The position numbers and the translations under genes are program-made. Under the pieces are notes generated by a model that made no database searches, was not told where the DNA came from, and was given only the letters and a program-made list of their open reading frames with translations. This document shows, piece after piece, positions 490 through 5,289 of a DNA stretch of 5,350 nucleotides. Within the stretch, counting starts at the first letter, position 1. The number at the start of each line of letters is the position of its first letter. The stretch is from a virus (Duplodnaviria; Heunggongvirae; Uroviricota; Caudoviricetes): the IMG/VR virus record IMGVR_UViG_2734482540_000012, one strand, 5' to 3'.

Positions 490-825
490 ATGAAGTGGAT
501 TGTGATTGATACAGTTATCCAGCCATCATGCGGAATATCTTTTTCAGTCATATGGAGTAAAATAAAATTAATAATCTGGTATCAATCGGATGCTTTCTTA
601 CCTCCTGAAAGTATATTTACACTGACTCACACAGGCATCATGCTCAATAACAAAGTGCTACCTGTAACCATTTACAACGTAGTACCATTCAATAAAACAT
701 TCTGGAATTCAATCAAAAATAGCCAGGAATGCCCTACAAATACAGATAACGTATTGAATGAATGCTTTAATAACCGTTGCACTCTGCAAATATGTCCTTA
801 TGGACTAAAACAACAAAGTCCATAA
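490..825 (+). CDS. hypothetical protein, AT-rich orphan, Cys-rich C-terminus
   Basis: ATG at 490 preceded by AAGGA (479-483) with a 6-nt spacer. 111 codons in visibly low-GC sequence, including 6 ATA codons. Four Cys in the last ~30 residues ([26 protein letters not shown]). Possible sigma70-like elements upstream (TTTACA at about 425-430). No family recognised. Confidence 0.4.
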
Positions 826-860
826 GGAGTTTACTCACATCTGACAAAATCAATATAAAC

Positions 861-880
861 AGCCCCTCCGGAGAGGGGCT
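861..880 (-). terminator. GC-rich hairpin (8-bp stem AGCCCCTC/GAGGGGCT, 4-nt loop); candidate minus-strand intrinsic terminator
   Basis: Perfect 8-bp stem seen directly. On the minus strand it is followed by GTTTATATTGATTTTG (T-rich). On the plus strand it is followed by GGAGAGTGGCGC (no T-tract), so termination is plausible only for leftward transcription. Confidence 0.3.
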
Positions 881-1272
881 GGAGAGTGGCGCTATGTGCC
901 ATTGCATGGTGCCGGGTGCCTCCCGGTGAATTCAGTACCAGCACCTGAATCCGCGATTATCCCATATACCTACTCGCTGATTGCCCCTCCGCACAGGGGG
1001 ATTCACCATGCCAGTTTCTTTTAACAAACTCCCCGCAAACCAGACAACAGTCAACCGCCTGAATTGTGAAGTATTTAAAAATTTCTCCCGCTAACTGATA
1101 CCCGGCTAACAGTCTGGCGTTTTCTTTTTCAGCAACGGGAAAGCAACAACCACCACACCCGCCACCAGCACACCGTCAGCCAGCACTGACATTATCCGGC
1201 TGCTGCAATGCCATTCACAAAAACAGTAAGCAATCACTTTTTACCGTAACAGGTGATAATCCAGATATGTAT

Positions 1273-1599
1273 CTACCCCAGATGAGTAATCCGAAGTTCA
1301 TCCATACCACAGGTCCTGGCTATTCTGTTGTACTCCTGAACAAGAGCAAATAATTCTGAATTAGCAACCATGAACTCATCGCAAACCCTCTGTATAGCAT
1401 CACTATTCAGAATAATAACGTCTCTTCCCGAAAGACGATCAGGAGTACAGAACAAAACTGTCAAACGGCTGAAGGCCTTTGCTCGTGCTGCATTGACTAT
1501 ATCAATACGCTGCCTAAGGATGAAACACCCCGACGCCTCATCAATATTCACTCTACCCACACCATATGAATGATAAATATTTAATGCTGAAAAAACCAT
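1273..1599 (-). CDS. hypothetical protein in the cargo position downstream of the phage tRNAs
   Basis: Minus-strand ORF; the track's longest form starts at a TTG (1626), first ATG is at 1599 (MVFSALNIYHSYG...). No convincing SD. 108 codons from the ATG include 3 AGA, 3 AGG and 3 ATA. Could be a remnant or non-coding; no family recognised. Confidence 0.35.
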   Translation of the reverse strand: MVFSALNIYHSYGVGRVNIDEASGCFILRQRIDIVNAARAKAFSRLTVLFCTPDRLSGRDVIILNSDAIQRVCDEFMVANSELFALVQEYNRIARTCGMDELRITHLG

Positions 1600-1736
1600 T
1601 AGACCGTATAACAAACACTCAATCAATACTTAACAGAACTTTTATTTTTGACAAACATAAAATATTTTCAACAATATCCTGAGCCAGGTATATTTCAGTA
1701 TAAGGCTCTGCCGGAAGGAATCTGGAAGAATGAATA

Positions 1737-1813
1737 TGGCGCGCTGTACTGGATTCGAACCAGTGACCGATTGCTTAGAAGGCAATTGCTCTGTCCGGCT
1801 GAGCTAACAACGC
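1737..1813 (-). tRNA. tRNA-Arg (anticodon UCU), CCA encoded
   Basis: Reverse complement reads GCGTTGT-TA-GCTC-AGCCGGACA-GAGC-A-ATTGC-CTTCTAA-GCAAT-CGGTC-ACTGG-TTCGAAT-CCAGT-ACAGCGC-G-CCA. 7-bp acceptor stem (one G.U), 4-bp D stem, 5-bp anticodon stem, loop CTTCTAA gives anticodon TCT, canonical TTCGAAT T-loop, encoded CCA. Resembles E. coli argU as I recall it; argN/argO-type phage tRNA. Confidence 0.9.
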
Positions 1814-1913
1814 TGAATACCGATAATGGACCGCCATCGGGGACCCGCCCCCGCACCAACAACCCTGTTATCGTGTCGTCTGCTCTTCCTGATAAGCTAA
1901 TGGCGGTTTGTGA

Positions 1914-1989
1914 TGGTGGCCCTTGCTGGATTTGAACCAGCGACCTGGCGATTATGAGTCGCTCGCTCTCACCACTGAGCTAAAGGGCC
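1914..1989 (-). tRNA. tRNA with CAU anticodon, most likely tRNA-Ile2 (lysidine, ileX/ileZ-like) rather than tRNA-Met
   Basis: Reverse complement reads GGCCCTT-TA-GCTC-AGTGGTGA-GAGC-G-AGCGA-CTCATAA-TCGCC-AGGTC-GCTGG-TTCAAAT-CCAGC-AAGGGCC-A-CCA. Full cloverleaf with one A.C mismatch at 27:43. Anticodon CAT. Very close to the E. coli ileX sequence as I recall it, and Stx-type lambdoid phages carry ileZ here. Ile versus Met cannot be settled from the anticodon alone. Confidence 0.85.
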
Positions 1990-2024
1990 GGGAGCAGAAT
2001 AATAACGGTCCGTAATTAATTCCG

Positions 2025-2052
2025 CAATAAAAAACCCGCTCGGCGGCGGGTT
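2025..2052 (-). terminator. rho-independent terminator downstream of the Q-like gene (tR'-like)
   Basis: Minus-strand RNA would be AACCCGC-CGCCGA-GCGGG followed by UUUUUUAUUG. GC stem pairs 2035-2039 with 2046-2050 (extendable by two A.U pairs), and a 6-U run is encoded by plus-strand A's 2029-2034. Lies about 40 nt after the Q stop and about 35 nt before the tRNA-Ile 5' end. Confidence 0.55.
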
Positions 2053-2091
2053 GTAGAAACTCTTCTAACGTCAGGCATAAAACGCCCATAG

Positions 2092-2946
2092 TTATGACGA
2101 ATTTACCACAGATTCCGGAAAAATCAACCTAGTTACCTTTTTTAACTGCCGCTCAGCCCATGCTTCTTCAATATCAAACCGAGTCACCAGCGCATCATAG
2201 AATTTCTTAACTGTTTTTTCCCATGACGCGCGTGTTATCTGGTTTGTCACCTCGCATATAGCATTAAATGCCTCCGTTGATGGTAGTCTTTCATAGCCAC
2301 GACCACCACAACGCTGGCAGTCTCTGATAACAGGCATACCACGTTTTACCGACTCTTCACGATGAATGGCGACACCACGCCCACGGCAATCCTTACAGGC
2401 GGTGGAAACCTCACCCTTTCCGCCACACTCCGGACAGGCAACTTTTACCACCTCCCTGACTTTTTTCCATTCTTCCCAGTAAGACGGATACACACCTTTC
2501 GTACACTTTGCCCATACCGGCGGCTTACCATCCGGATACTGGACCTTGTTTGTAAAAACTACGCTTTCAATAAATTTTTCCCCATAGCAACAAGGGCACT
2601 GCTTTTTACTCGCTGCGCTGCGGGCATAATCCTCAAAAGCGTACGAAGCCATAATGCGCATCACTACCGGTTTTATTTCTGCCGGAAGTTTTCTCAACGC
2701 CGCCACACGATCGCACCGACTGAGTGCATAATCTGCCAGTAATTCTGTTGCCCGCGCCCTGTCATTCATACTGATGCCCATTTTCCCCAGGAACGCAGAA
2801 AACCCCATCTCAGCCCGATTCTGTGTCATGCCCTGCGCGGCCATCACATCAGTGATACTCAGCGCATCTTTTGACGTTGAGGCCGATGCATCGGTCAGGC
2901 AAGGGGATTTTGGGGAGTAGTATTTCGGTAAATCTTCCAGTTTCAT
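2092..2946 (-). CDS. putative late antiterminator Q-family protein with DnaJ-type CxxCxGxG zinc-finger repeats
   Basis: 284-aa ORF. Its ATG overlaps the rusA stop (ATGA). It sits immediately downstream of rusA and upstream of terminator and phage tRNAs, the canonical Q position. Contains CPCCYGEK, CPECGGKG, CKDCRGRG and CQRCGGRG. Family assignment from context and memory, no search. Confidence 0.7.
   Translation of the reverse strand: MKLEDLPKYYSPKSPCLTDASASTSKDALSITDVMAAQGMTQNRAEMGFSAFLGKMGISMNDRARATELLADYALSRCDRVAALRKLPAEIKPVVMRIMASYAFEDYARSAASKKQCPCCYGEKFIESVVFTNKVQYPDGKPPVWAKCTKGVYPSYWEEWKKVREVVKVACPECGGKGEVSTACKDCRGRGVAIHREESVKRGMPVIRDCQRCGGRGYERLPSTEAFNAICEVTNQITRASWEKTVKKFYDALVTRFDIEEAWAERQLKKVTRLIFPESVVNSS
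2100..2127 (-). promoter_or_regulatory. candidate late promoter (pR'-like) overlapping the 3' end of the Q-like gene
   Basis: Minus-strand TTGATT (plus 2122-2127), 16-nt spacer, TAAATT (plus 2100-2105). A start near the Q stop codon would give a short roughly 50-60 nt transcript ending at the 2025-2052 terminator, analogous to lambdoid pR'-qut-tR'. Pattern match only. Confidence 0.2.
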
Positions 2947-3317
2947 TTTTTGACCTGCTCTTCATGCATTATGGGGTAAATCTTCACCCCCAGACGTCCA
3001 CCAGATACTGGCTGACCACGAACGATATTGATTTCATCAAACTGCTCATCGTCCATTAACACTCCCGCATGTGTCAGTGCATCCAGTGGTGCTTTCAGGA
3101 TATTGTCCAGGTCACGACGGCGCTTATCCGGTGGCTCTGCAATAATCTTTATCGCCAGTCTTCCGGACAGGCTTAATTTCAGTCGCTGCTGACGGACAAT
3201 AAGCGCCACATCCCGGCGATAACGCTCACCGGCTTTTGATACAAAATATGTGTTGTCACGACGTCGCCAGTAAGTATTCACCGTCGGCGGATAAGGTAAA
3301 ATAAACTCATGGCGCAT
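2943..3317 (-). CDS. rusA: RusA-family Holliday junction resolvase (crossover junction endodeoxyribonuclease)
   Basis: 124 aa. Shares the LPxPPxxNxYxR N-terminal motif, the PDxRRRDLDNxxKAxxDALTxAG catalytic core and the C-terminal GGRL motif with E. coli RusA as I recall it. Start overlaps the upstream ORF stop (ATGA) and its stop overlaps the Q-like start. Confidence 0.9.
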   Translation of the reverse strand: MRHEFILPYPPTVNTYWRRRDNTYFVSKAGERYRRDVALIVRQQRLKLSLSGRLAIKIIAEPPDKRRRDLDNILKAPLDALTHAGVLMDDEQFDEINIVRGQPVSGGRLGVKIYPIMHEEQVKK

Positions 3318-3559
3318 CAGCGCAGCACCTCCTGCACCAGTTTTTCAAACTTTCCGACTCTGGTTTCCAGCTCTGCCACACAGTCCACCAGCTCATCTAC
3401 TGCTTTCTGTGCGCGATGCTTCGCCTGCATCAGTTCCCGAAGCGCGGGTACCATATCTTTACGGATAGCGTCTTTTGTTATGCCCGTTTTTTCGAGTTGT
3501 TCAGCATGACGCAGCATTTCCTGCGCGTGTTTACGCAATTGTTCAGGGGTAAAAGTCAT
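3317..3559 (-). CDS. hypothetical nin-region protein, predicted coiled-coil, translationally coupled to rusA
   Basis: Minus ORF; first ATG at 3559 (MTFTPEQLRKHAQEML...), with an alternative TTG at 3574. Stop TGA overlaps the rusA ATG. Charged, helical-looking sequence. No family recognised. Confidence 0.5.
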   Translation of the reverse strand: MTFTPEQLRKHAQEMLRHAEQLEKTGITKDAIRKDMVPALRELMQAKHRAQKAVDELVDCVAELETRVGKFEKLVQEVLR

Positions 3560-3694
3560 TGTCTGGTTGTTCAAAAGAAACGCTCCATCTTACTGCTGTC
3601 AGTTCGTTTATTACTGTATCTGCGCGGATTGCCGGGCTTCATGGGAGTGGAAAGCACCCGTGCACTTTCCTGGTCCACAGGCAGAAAATGTCCG

Positions 3695-3850
3695 TAGACT
3701 GGCCCCCTGAATCTCCAGACAACCAGTATCACTTAAATAAGTGATAGTCTTAATACTAGTTTTTAGACTAGTCATTGGAGTACAGATGATTGATGTCTTA
3801 GGGCCGGAGAAACGCAGACGGCGTACCACACAGGAAAAGATCGCAATTGT
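3695..3850 (+). mobile_element. IS2 left-end fragment (positions 1-156 of IS2, including IRL and the first 21 codons of insC)
   Basis: Begins TAGACTGGCCCCCTGAATCTCC, the IS2 left terminus as I recall it. All 156 bp are identical to 4361..4516 in this window. Identity stops abruptly after GCAATTGT at 3850. Confidence 0.85.
3786..3850 (+). pseudogene. insC: insC remnant (first ~21 codons of IS2 OrfA, then read-through into IS21-family sequence)
   Basis: ATG at 3786 is at the same offset (+91) from the IS2 terminus as the insC ATG at 4452 in the second copy. Encodes [22 protein letters not shown], then diverges. Confidence 0.6.
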
Positions 3851-4394
<544 letters not shown>

Positions 4395-4451
4395 TCACTT
4401 AAATAAGTGATAGTCTTAATACTAGTTTTTAGACTAGTCATTGGAGTACAG

Positions 4452-4817
4452 ATGATTGATGTCTTAGGGCCGGAGAAACGCAGACGGCGTACCACACAGG
4501 AAAAGATCGCAATTGTTCAGCAGAGCTTTGAACCGGGGATGACGGTCTCCCTCGTTGCCCGGCAACATGGTGTAGCAGCCAGCCAGTTATTTCTCTGGCG
4601 TAAGCAATACCAGGAAGGAAGTCTTACTGCTGTCGCCGCCGGAGAACAGGTTGTTCCTGCCTCTGAACTTGCTGCCGCCATGAAGCAGATTAAAGAACTC
4701 CAGCGCCTGCTCGGCAAGAAAACGATGGAAAATGAACTCCTCAAAGAAGCCGTTGAATATGGACGGGCAAAAAAGTGGATAGCGCACGCGCCCTTATTGC
4801 CCGGGGATGGGGAGTAA
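4452..4817 (+). CDS. insC: IS2 transposase OrfA (InsC), helix-turn-helix DNA-binding component
   Basis: ATG at 4452 ([41 protein letters not shown]...), stop TAA at 4815-4817. Matches IS2 InsC from memory. The ORF track begins earlier at an in-frame GTG (4407). Confidence 0.9.
4769..4775 (+). other. A AAA AAG slippery heptamer: programmed -1 ribosomal frameshift site giving the OrfAB (InsCD) fusion transposase
   Basis: AAAAAAG at 4769-4775 near the end of insC, where the insD frame opens (GTG at 4775). A6G motifs are the established frameshift signal of IS3-family elements. Confidence 0.6.
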
Positions 4818-5289
4818 GCTTAGTCAGCCGTTGTCTCCGGGTGTCGCGTGCGCAGTTGCACGTCATTCTCAGACGAACCGATGACTGGATGGATGGCCGC
4901 CGCAGTCGTCACACTGATGATACGGATGTGCTTCTCCGTATACACCATGTTATCGGAGAGCTGCCCACGTATGGTTATCGTCGGGTATGGGCGCTGCTTC
5001 GCAGACAGGCAGAACTTGATGGTATGCCTGCGATCAATGCCAAACATGTTTACCGGATCATGCGCCAGAATGCGCTGTTGCTTGAGCGAAAACCTGCTGT
5101 ACCGCCATCGAAACGGGCACATACAGGCAGAGTGGCCGTGAAAGAAAGCAATCAGCGATGGTGCTCTGACGGGTTCGAGTTCTGCTGTGATAACGGAGAG
5201 AGACTGCGTGTCACGTTCGCGCTGGACTGCTGTGATCGTGAGGCACTGCACTGGGCGGTGACTATCGGCGGCTTCAACAGTGAAACAGT
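4775..5289 (+). pseudogene. insD: IS2 transposase OrfB (InsD), 3'-truncated (about 171 of about 301 codons retained)
   Basis: Frame encodes [21 protein letters not shown]...[22 protein letters not shown] (track shows M at the GTG), then leaves IS2 at 5289 and ends SAPVI-stop at 5308. The InsD region downstream of ...NSETV (in my recollection of IS2, continuing ...QDVMLGAVERRF... and the DDE catalytic region) is absent from the window. Confidence 0.85.

Follow-up and report, generated by a model that had tools for sequence, protein, structure and literature searches.

The window analysed here, a 5,350-nt stretch of viral DNA (Caudoviricetes; IMG/VR record IMGVR_UViG_2734482540_000012), corresponds to a lambdoid prophage late region that is read on the minus strand. 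Its genes and signals, given in the order in which the minus strand is read, are as follows.

3317..2943, minus strand: RusA gene, upstream of the sRNA.
2946..2092, minus strand: gene for a Q antiterminator of the PF03589 type (Pfam).
2052..2033, minus strand: terminator-like site right after Q, likely tR' (terminator scan).
1737-1813 and 1914-1989: two tRNA genes called by ARAGORN, in minus-strand order tRNA-Ile2 (anticodon CAT) and tRNA-Arg (anticodon TCT), upstream of the sRNA.
Between the tRNA genes and the DUF3927 gene: phrog_2873 ORF.
1237..1106, minus strand: DUF3927 gene (PF13064, E 1.7e-27), directly upstream of the sRNA.
1011..852, minus strand: STnc100-family sRNA transcript of ~160 nt, with its predicted 5' end at G1011 and its 3' end in the U-rich run 859..852 (Rfam and homology).
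490-825, opposite strand to the late genes: IraM-like gene, beyond the 3' end of the sRNA.
After the IraM-like gene, downstream of the sRNA: truncated DUF1737 gene.

The sRNA is transcribed in the same direction as the prophage late genes. At the identical locus of strain SK1144 (NZ_AP018784.2, 2897629-2897859), the holin, YdfR, lysozyme and other lysis genes come next.

The GC-rich block of hairpins beside the DUF3927 gene is one STnc100 sRNA gene on the minus strand, running from ~1011 to 852. A sequence-only reading of this DNA had described the block as richer in G+C than its flanks and free of ORFs of 60 aa or more, and both statements hold: G+C is 0.58 in 851-1000 against 0.34-0.40 in the flanks, and only ORFs of 40-50 aa overlap the block. 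The Rfam scan which that reading had proposed (cmscan, whole window against Rfam 15) places RF02076 (STnc100, 'Gammaproteobacterial sRNA STnc100') at 1040..851 of the minus strand; the hit scores 132.4 bits, against 47 bits as the gathering score of the family, has an E-value of 5.8e-30 and covers positions 1-206 of the 206 in the model. An E-value of this size lies far outside what chance would give. RF02076 is the sole strong non-tRNA Rfam match in the window; at E up to 1, STnc100 alone among 4227 Rfam families matches the block, and no riboswitch or ribozyme class does. In addition, the published STnc_100 qPCR primers match the window exactly at 1010..991 and 918-937. The window element is STnc100 proper, a member of a family that is already catalogued. 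Among the options listed in the sequence-only reading, the small RNA was the right one, as borne out by the full-length RF02076 match, by helices that covary across genera and by homologues that are expressed and Hfq-bound. The limits first given, 840-1010, do contain the hairpins, but the element reaches ~1011 and its putative promoter ~1054.

The elements of the RNA are listed here from 5' to 3'.

1011..1004, minus strand: 5' strand of helix P1, GCAUGGUG, which pairs with 911..904 and closes a four-way junction (MFE fold).
999..984, minus strand: P2 hairpin, CCCCU 999..995, loop GUGCGG 994..989, AGGGG 988..984 (Rfam and MFE fold).
981..976, minus strand: 5' strand of the pseudoknot, AUCAGC, which pairs with GCUGGU 942..937 in the P3 loop.
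952..928, minus strand: P3 hairpin, GGAUUCAG 952..945, 9-nt loop 944..936, CUGAAUUC 935..928 (inverted repeat and MFE fold).
926..912, minus strand: P4 hairpin, CCGGG 926..922, loop AGGCA 921..917, CCCGG 916..912 (Rfam and MFE fold).
911..904, minus strand: 3' strand of P1, CACCAUGC (MFE fold and pair counts), also a mosaic breakpoint.
903..882, minus strand: variable single-stranded linker of 22 nt, a candidate target-pairing (seed) region by analogy.
881..852, minus strand: intrinsic terminator, 9-bp stem 881..873/868..860 with loop 872..869, followed by UUUAUAUU (terminator scan, inverted repeat I3 and Rfam 3' hairpin).

The minimum free energy fold of the minus strand yields the four-way junction architecture of P1-P4. 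P1 is an 8-bp long-range helix, in which GCATGGTG at 904-911 pairs with CACCATGC at 1004-1011, and it encloses the second, third and fourth of the hairpins first noticed. All four of those hairpins are helices of the RF02076 model. They had been taken for consecutive and independent structures; instead, three of them are arms of one junction closed by P1. The individual stems were well placed. CCGGG 912-916 with CCCGG 922-926 can be read directly in the sequence, CCCCT 984-988 with AGGGG 995-999 is confirmed by sequence and fold, and ATTCAG 930-935 with CTGAAT 945-950 across a 9-nt gap is also present, with the RNA fold lengthening it to 8 bp (928-935/945-952). The stem described as a perfect 8-bp repeat at 861-880 exists, but the actual inverted repeat has 9 bp, 860-868/873-881, around a 4-nt loop. 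The long-range helix, the pseudoknot and the extent to ~1011 with the promoter did not figure in the sequence-only reading. The fold energy of the minus strand is modestly better than that of shuffled sequences (z -2.43). The plus strand folds about equally well, as expected for inverted repeats, and therefore fold energy alone cannot fix the strand.

The fold has a cloverleaf-like outline only, with the 8-bp closing helix, a 4-bp stem carrying an 8-nt loop with GG, and a 5-bp stem beside the 3' strand. A tRNA-like element was rejected, as ARAGORN sees only the two tRNAs at 1737-1813 and 1914-1989 and the Rfam tRNA model has no match in the block. A decoy for CsrA acting through GGA motifs was likewise discarded: the GGA of the P2 loop is not kept, its third base being A, U or C, and the P4 loop reads AGGCA.

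An exact-pattern search for the P2 motif, with each species represented by one genome, gave 32 loci, in the genera Escherichia, Citrobacter, Klebsiella, Enterobacter, Leclercia, Lelliottia, Superficieibacter, Trabulsiella, Atlantibacter, Phytobacter, Franconibacter, Erwinia and Rosenbergiella. Eighteen distant loci were re-scanned; each of them reaches the STnc100 threshold of Rfam, and some contain two to four copies in tandem. We gathered 41 distinct cores. Because the variable region was misaligned in the MAFFT alignment, a gapless registered alignment was built from fixed-length segments, and it comprises 36 sequences from ~15 genera of Enterobacterales. With the plain MAFFT alignment, RNAalifold gave P1, P2 and P4 and missed P3. 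In the 36 copies, standard pairs occupy 92.7% of the cells, compared with 42-50% when the partners are slid by 1-3 columns; the register of P3 was set from per-sequence folds, which somewhat inflates its paired percentage. Changes on both sides occur in 10 of the 25 pairs (99 cells), and none of 500 shuffles, which ignore relatedness, reaches the observed covariation score.

The compensatory base changes that the sequence-only reading had suggested looking for in homologous loci are present in P1 and P3 of these 36 distinct copies. In P1, the outer three of the 8 pairs have changed on both sides, with G-U/U-G variants specific to the minus strand, and in P3 six of the seven counted pairs have done so. 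P4 is paired in 100% of the 36 copies, with one double change, two U-G variants and an invariant loop. The four C-G pairs of P2 are invariant in the 41 distinct copies, so this helix provides no covariation evidence, and P4, itself nearly unchanged, is equally uninformative. G-U is the commonest pair at one position of P3, and U-G and G-U variants occur in P1 and P4. On the opposite strand such pairs would turn into A-C mismatches, so it is the minus-strand RNA whose structure is under selection.

Of 5426 complete E. coli genomes, 2860 carry the 231-bp block, in up to 12 places per genome and nearly always on the chromosome, and the window copy is 100% identical to copies in >2,000 of the complete E. 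coli genomes. Only 23 plasmid records carry it, and a plasmid feature was rejected on this count. The phage records with the block are mostly those of Stx-converting phages. From 903 to 5289, the window shows 96-98% identity to many E. coli prophages that are unrelated to it further left, which places a mosaic junction at 903/904; the 3' tail of these prophages is swapped precisely where P1 ends. This breakpoint, together with a core that barely changes between phages that are otherwise unrelated and might act as a crossover site, is what favours a feature acting at the DNA level, either a recombination or attachment remnant, as once suggested for the block, or a boundary that aids the exchange of lambdoid modules. 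We regard such a feature as very improbable. P1, P3 and the pseudoknot carry compensatory changes, and the G-U pairs are strand-specific; both point to selection on a single-stranded RNA of set polarity. The block also shows no integrase, att-like direct repeats or duplicated tRNA end, and crossovers within a conserved gene are an expected side effect.

The 5-8 nt right after P2 are, in almost all copies, complementary to the P3 loop. The pairs in other genera read ACUGGAUA/UAUCCAGU, CCAGUUA/UAACUGG, CUGGUGA/UCACCAG and AAGCCA/UGGCUU, and among family copies CCAG/CUGG is swapped to CUGG/CCAG. Each strand matches its own partner better than a partner taken from another copy, with Watson-Crick runs of 5.3 versus 3.9 on average and duplex energies of -9.65 versus -7.10 kcal/mol. 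None of 10000 permutations reaches the observed value, with 27 distinct pair types. In the plain MAFFT alignment, which was fitted to no structure, all six pseudoknot pairs have changed on both sides. The consensus structure line of cmscan draws small local hairpins at the two strands and no pseudoknot. Neither the pseudoknot nor leader-type members appear in the Rfam consensus printed by cmscan, and the papers on the family that were consulted do not mention them. The covarying pseudoknot and the modular 5' domain are modest additions to a known family.

RefSeq carries a pseudo, truncated 'hypothetical protein' antisense to the block and one of 132 aa antisense to PasD1. In addition, ribosome footprints have been seen on some STnc100 copies of EDL933, with ribosomal coverage values of 1.5-3.2 (PMC5331693). 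Both would fit a block that encodes a small protein, whether the 42-aa plus-strand ORF at 896-1024 (the RefSeq pseudo entry) or a 46-aa minus-strand ORF at 907..767. In the latter, the AUG lies inside P1, 11 nt after an SD-like GGGAGG. A small protein on either strand was rejected, and we hold it most improbable. The spacing of the conserved blocks falls in all three classes modulo 3 (19, 9 and 13 copies), and neither strand has a frame that stays open in more than 15 of the 41 copies. The 42-aa ORF has no match in Pfam or PHROGs, and the 46-aa ORF crosses the terminator; in genera other than Escherichia, P1 reads GUGGUG/CACCAC and this ORF has no AUG. The pseudo-CDS that RefSeq sets antisense to the block is probably spurious. 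Nor is the block a fragment of a gene known in relatives, a case that the sequence-only reading had named against a structured RNA; no reading frame is conserved across the family. For the window copy, family membership, fold with covariation, strand, the context of a prophage late region and non-coding status are established.

Two candidate promoter elements lie upstream of P1.

1047..1042, minus strand: putative -35, TTGTCT, with TTGACT at 1054..1049 as an alternative (sequence and promoter scan).
1026..1018, minus strand: candidate extended -10, TGtTAAAAG; TTTGTTAAAA is kept in all Escherichia copies.

Escherichia copies share TTGAC(a/t)GTTG(t/c)CT and TTTGTTAAAA upstream, with a spacing that fits a start at ~1011, and the TTGAC(a/t)GTTG(t/c)CT motif is also found in the VT2-Sakai, PhiR12_2 and PasD1 copies. 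In 20 of 40 family members, the best -10 of the promoter scan ends 7-10 nt before TGGTG. The promoter scores themselves are barely above those of shuffled sequences (7.99 versus 7.51, sd 0.77); the hexamers are weak, and a stricter consensus promoter scan of the window makes no call there. An own sigma-70 promoter probably precedes the sRNA, with only the positional clustering being suggestive. In Salmonella LT2, an RpoD ChIP-exo signal has been reported at STnc100 promoters (PMC10794520). RNA-seq places the 5' end of PasD1 (NC_011601:1060260) at the first G of GCAUGGUG, which corresponds to 1011 in the window. By homology with PasD1, the 5' end of the window sRNA is predicted at ~G1011, the first base of P1.

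At the other end, the first hairpin of the sequence-only reading was correctly taken for a minus-strand terminator, on the evidence of the terminator scan, the inverted repeat and the Rfam 3' hairpin, and the scan agrees that its T-tract exists on the minus strand only. Seven of the 9 bp in the stem are G-C. The U-tract is interrupted (UUUAUAUU) and weaker than the U7-8 of most relatives, and for this reason termination and Hfq binding may be less efficient. A riboswitch-like switch between terminator and antiterminator, formed by P2 and the terminator that looks like it (CCCCUCUCCGGAGGGG), was considered and dropped: the likeness is limited to Escherichia copies, and other genera use unrelated GCCUGC...GCAGGC terminators.

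Given this strong hairpin with its U-rich tail (881..852), the block could serve the late operon chiefly as a terminator or insulator, whose hairpins would stop read-through from the upstream moron genes in the lysogen and would be overridden by Q-modified polymerase on induction, any RNA being a by-product like lambda 6S or StxS. The position of the block between Q and the lysis genes, and in several genera directly upstream of the holin gene, would suit this role. Nevertheless, we consider it improbable. The last hairpin would suffice for termination, leaving ~110 nt of covarying junction and pseudoknot over; a separate terminator-like site already stands right after Q (2052..2033); and family members also occur outside late operons, beside dcp and beside an autotransporter gene. 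A pR' leader was rejected as a general account on similar grounds, as the window has the separate terminator after Q and the family occurs with three Q types as well as outside late regions. In some genera the element sits between Q and the holin gene.

Lambda 6S RNA and StxS (Sp5) do resemble the window element as abundant, short, constitutive lysogen RNAs from the late region whose intrinsic terminator is read through by Q-modified polymerase, and StxS is an Hfq-binding regulator too (PMC7873438). However, they start at pR' right after Q, whereas the window element lies ~1 kb further downstream, past the tRNAs and moron genes, with its own putative promoter. There is no similarity to them in sequence or structure, and no other Rfam match. 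AsxR and AgvB (RF02703, RF02702) come from the same lambdoid moron region as the window element and are convergent with STnc100-type sRNAs in EHEC (PMC4104026). These are opposite-strand sponges of 51-60 nt with a conserved 3' region of ~42 nt, whereas the plus strand of the window has no T-tract after the shared hairpin. Neither RF02702 nor RF02703 matches the window at E up to 1, and no plus-strand terminator is called at the block.

The closest characterised relatives are other STnc100 copies. STnc100 was first defined from Hfq-associated RNA in Salmonella (Sittka 2008, as cited in PMC9029176). EcOnc27, which is sRNA103, is the copy of an Stx2 phage and has been detected by Hfq crosslinking (Hfq-CRAC) and Northern blot (PMC4104026, PMC7873438); its overexpression leads to more fimZ and espA transcripts, with no mechanism assigned (PMC4104026, PMC7873438, PMC12711010). 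EDL933 has 11 STnc100 copies, most of them expressed, and STnc100_4 was confirmed by Northern blot (PMC5331693). STnc_100 was also found in outer-membrane vesicles of two STEC strains, with the primers that match the window exactly (PMC12370729). One machine-learning study counted variants of the Stx2-linked copy among its strongest genomic predictors for haemolytic uraemic syndrome (PMC12711010). In VT2-Sakai and phage F039, a family member lies 75 nt after stx2B, before an esterase gene, and one phage record annotates the stx2B-adjacent copy as STnc100 (also PMC12370729). Compared with the window copy, the Stx2-phage copy is alike base for base in the promoter motif, P1, P2 and P4, and the EcOnc27/sRNA103 type shares with it the helices, the orientation relative to the late genes and the setting in the moron region between Q and the lysis genes. 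The window copy adjoins the DUF3927 gene, whereas the Stx2-phage copy adjoins stx2B. Between the window and Sakai copies (72% identity, 63% of the query covered), the sequences of P3, linker, pseudoknot and terminator differ. Unlike the STnc100-type copies of EHEC, the window copy has no convergent partner of the AsxR/AgvB type, and its U-tail is interrupted.

PasD1 and PasD2 of EPEC E2348/69 (Pearl Mizrahi 2021) lie at the same site, directly after DUF3927 and before the lysis cassette, and have been described as sharing an ancestor with STnc100 (2026 preprint by Zhu, Shabalina and Storz, doi 10.64898/2026.05.13.724894). PasD stability is Hfq-dependent, and its RIL-seq targets and seed are known (PMC8550237). 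PasD and the window element agree in having the promoter motif, P1 (GCAUGGUG), P3, a hairpin like P2, a pseudoknot (7 bp in PasD, AAUGAUC/GAUCAUU) and a terminated 3' tail. They differ in P4, which PasD lacks (CACCGGGAGGCACCCGGCACC replaced by UAGCGGGAGGCGCC) and the window keeps intact; in P2, altered in PasD; and in linker and terminator, the PasD seed UGUGAG being absent from the window linker. The PasD loci score below the Rfam threshold for STnc100. An identity with PasD was rejected on this score and on a likeness confined to the promoter, P1, part of P2 and P3. PasD1 and PasD2 are degenerate relatives at the same position, and the window element is no member of PasD.

By analogy with these relatives, we take the block to be an independently transcribed, Hfq-associated, trans-acting prophage sRNA of ~160 nt made in the lysogen, with a probability of about 80%. 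Transcription would start at ~G1011 from an own sigma-70 promoter (-35 at 1047..1042, extended -10 at 1026..1018). The RNA would then fold so that P1 closes the junction of P2, P3 and P4 and the strand after P2 pairs with the P3 loop, followed by the linker and the terminator (881..860). The lysogen would make it constitutively, and Hfq may bind it, by homology with EcOnc27/sRNA103 and, more distantly, PasD1/PasD2. It would act in trans through limited base pairing with host and prophage mRNAs, most likely by its variable linker and 3' region. In PasD, the seed UGUGAG and the ends of RIL-seq chimeras map to the linker and 3' part just before the terminator; the window linker (903..882) is therefore a candidate pairing region. 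The linker sequence is entirely different between family members. The conserved 5' domain would have a separate role, with 5'-end protection and partner binding among the options. For the window copy, we infer promoter, start site, Hfq dependence, seed location and targets by analogy. To our knowledge, no direct target has been validated and no function established for any STnc100 copy.

Several features sit less easily with a trans-acting sRNA, including the interrupted U-tract and the weak promoter hexamers. In addition, conservation is reversed relative to a classical seed-type sRNA, with a near-invariant 5' domain and a hypervariable supposed seed. All 41 distinct copies have the same P2, P4, junction AAUC and P4 loop AGGCA, whereas P1, P3 and the pseudoknot show variation with compensation, a pattern seen in riboswitches, ribozymes and protein-binding RNAs. 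Furthermore, a hairpin with a T-run within 150 nt is present in 24 of 40 distinct tails and lacking in the other 16, so that ~40% of members resemble the 5' leader of a small ORF; several of the terminatorless members precede small ORFs of unrelated kinds with a Shine-Dalgarno sequence 30-200 nt downstream. Alternatively, then, the conserved 5' domain might be a portable cis-acting leader, that is, a promoter with a pseudoknotted four-way junction at +1, which would stabilise or regulate a fused short tail or small moron ORF through burial of the 5' end, binding of a protein or ligand, or another structure-dependent activity. The exchange of 3' tails exactly at the end of P1 in E. coli prophages, the tandem arrays of 2-4 copies that precede the holin gene in Superficieibacter and Leclercia, and the predicted start at the first base of P1 also point in this direction. 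We view this alternative as possible and clearly the less probable of the two. At E up to 1 the block has no match to a riboswitch, ribozyme or tRNA model, and no ligand, protein partner or cleavage site is known. The small ORFs downstream are mechanical calls only. Homologues show Hfq binding and chimeras with trans targets (PMC4104026, PMC8550237), and PasD, which lacks P4, is still abundant with many Hfq-dependent interactions.

The trans-acting sRNA remains our preferred reading, and it lets an intergenic GC-rich block, until now unexplained, be annotated as a named non-coding gene, in a family whose copies adjoin Shiga toxin genes. The pseudoknot, the junction with its invariant loops, the 5' end buried in P1 and the tail swaps at the end of P1 suggest treating the 5' domain and the 3' tail as separate functional modules. 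The conservation pattern, the tail swaps and the terminatorless members would be compatible with a portable 5' RNA domain that has a function of its own, a notion we put forward only tentatively. With similar reserve, STnc100 might be seen as a mobile expression cassette, in which a promoter and a 5' RNA domain are fused to interchangeable payloads. If this were true, the payloads would be sRNA seed-and-terminator tails in the prophages of E. coli and Salmonella and small moron ORFs elsewhere, and the activity of the 5' domain could be protein or ligand binding, 5'-end protection or catalysis.

A mosaic breakpoint falls within the sRNA gene itself, at window position 903/904, which is the 3' end of P1, the helix that closes the core of the STnc100 RNA (compare L039:4940-5230, one of the compared loci). 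From 903 to 5289, the window is 96-98% identical to many E. coli prophages. Left of the breakpoint, those prophages carry an unrelated 3' tail and genes for TolA-C-terminal-domain proteins. Relative to the window, the tail has been swapped and the conserved 5' domain of STnc100 has been kept intact.

In the RefSeq annotation, 'hypothetical protein' CDSs or pseudo-CDSs lie antisense to STnc100 and to its relative PasD. The antisense ORF or CDS sites are:
window 896-1024 (+)
L001:6067-6192, in the identical locus of strain SK1144
L034:2301-2699, in the PasD locus

None of the reading frames examined is conserved across the STnc100 family, so these CDSs were probably called in error across an RNA gene. 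On the sense strand, a 46-aa ORF (767-907, -) starts at an AUG inside the 3' strand of P1, 11 nt 3' of the invariant Shine-Dalgarno-like GGGAGG of hairpin P4, and extends through the sRNA terminator. This AUG is Escherichia-specific. Ribosome footprints have been reported on some STnc100 copies of E. coli EDL933 (PMC5331693).

Downstream, the stop codon (823-825) of the IraM-like ORF (490-825, +) falls inside an inverted repeat (795-806 / 817-828) whose 12-bp arms match perfectly on either side of a 10-nt loop. About 25 nt separate the repeat from the sRNA terminator, so that the convergent IraM-like and sRNA genes end almost back to back. Further along, the DUF1737 gene (56-244, -) has a truncated C-terminus, and in the identical locus RefSeq flags it as a pseudogene. 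Decay has thus reached part of the prophage late region.

Upstream of the sRNA gene, the following features accompany the Q module:
window 1737-1989 (-), a tRNA pair found by ARAGORN
window 3695-3850 and 4361-4516, the start of IS2, present in two copies
window 3909-4388 (-), an IS21 istB fragment between the two IS2 copies

The stop codon of Q lies 40 nt upstream of a terminator-like hairpin at 2033-2052 (-), AACCCGCCGCCGAGCGGGTT followed by TTTTTATT. This hairpin is a candidate tR', in which case the pR' transcript would be very short. The Trp_leader match over this hairpin is weak and at chance level. The tRNA at 1914-1989 (-) is called tRNA-Met (CAT) by ARAGORN, whereas RefSeq annotates the identical gene as an ileZ-like, lysidine-type tRNA-Ile. 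Between the two tRNAs is a gap of 100 nt; in SK1144, a relative, a second tRNA-Arg is found at this place. The initial 156 bp of IS2 occur at two sites 666 bp apart, with 100% identity between them; the first copy stops after these 156 bp, and the second appears truncated at about 5289. Upstream of the Q module, these IS2 and IS21 pieces form a set of nested IS insertions.

In Superficieibacter and Leclercia, STnc100 forms tandem arrays of 2-4 copies spaced 50-70 nt apart, at these compared loci:
L006:6323-7018
L012:2787-3238
L020:1903-2346
L028:5406-6576
L013:4286-4906

Most arrays have a Q-like gene on one side and holin/lysozyme/Rz genes on the other, and in Leclercia an isrI (RF01392) match adjoins the array.

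A hairpin plus T-run within 150 nt is lacking in about 40% of the distinct members of the STnc100 family. The sequences in question lie downstream of the cores in loci L003, L009, L013, L014, L026, L027, L031 and L033. In several terminator-less members, small predicted ORFs with a Shine-Dalgarno sequence come next. The ORFs predicted 3' of such cores encode:
a lipoprotein-like product, 69 aa
small membrane proteins, 40-56 aa
a shared protein, 62-63 aa
a shared protein, 152 aa

In such members, the STnc100 domain may be a 5' leader.
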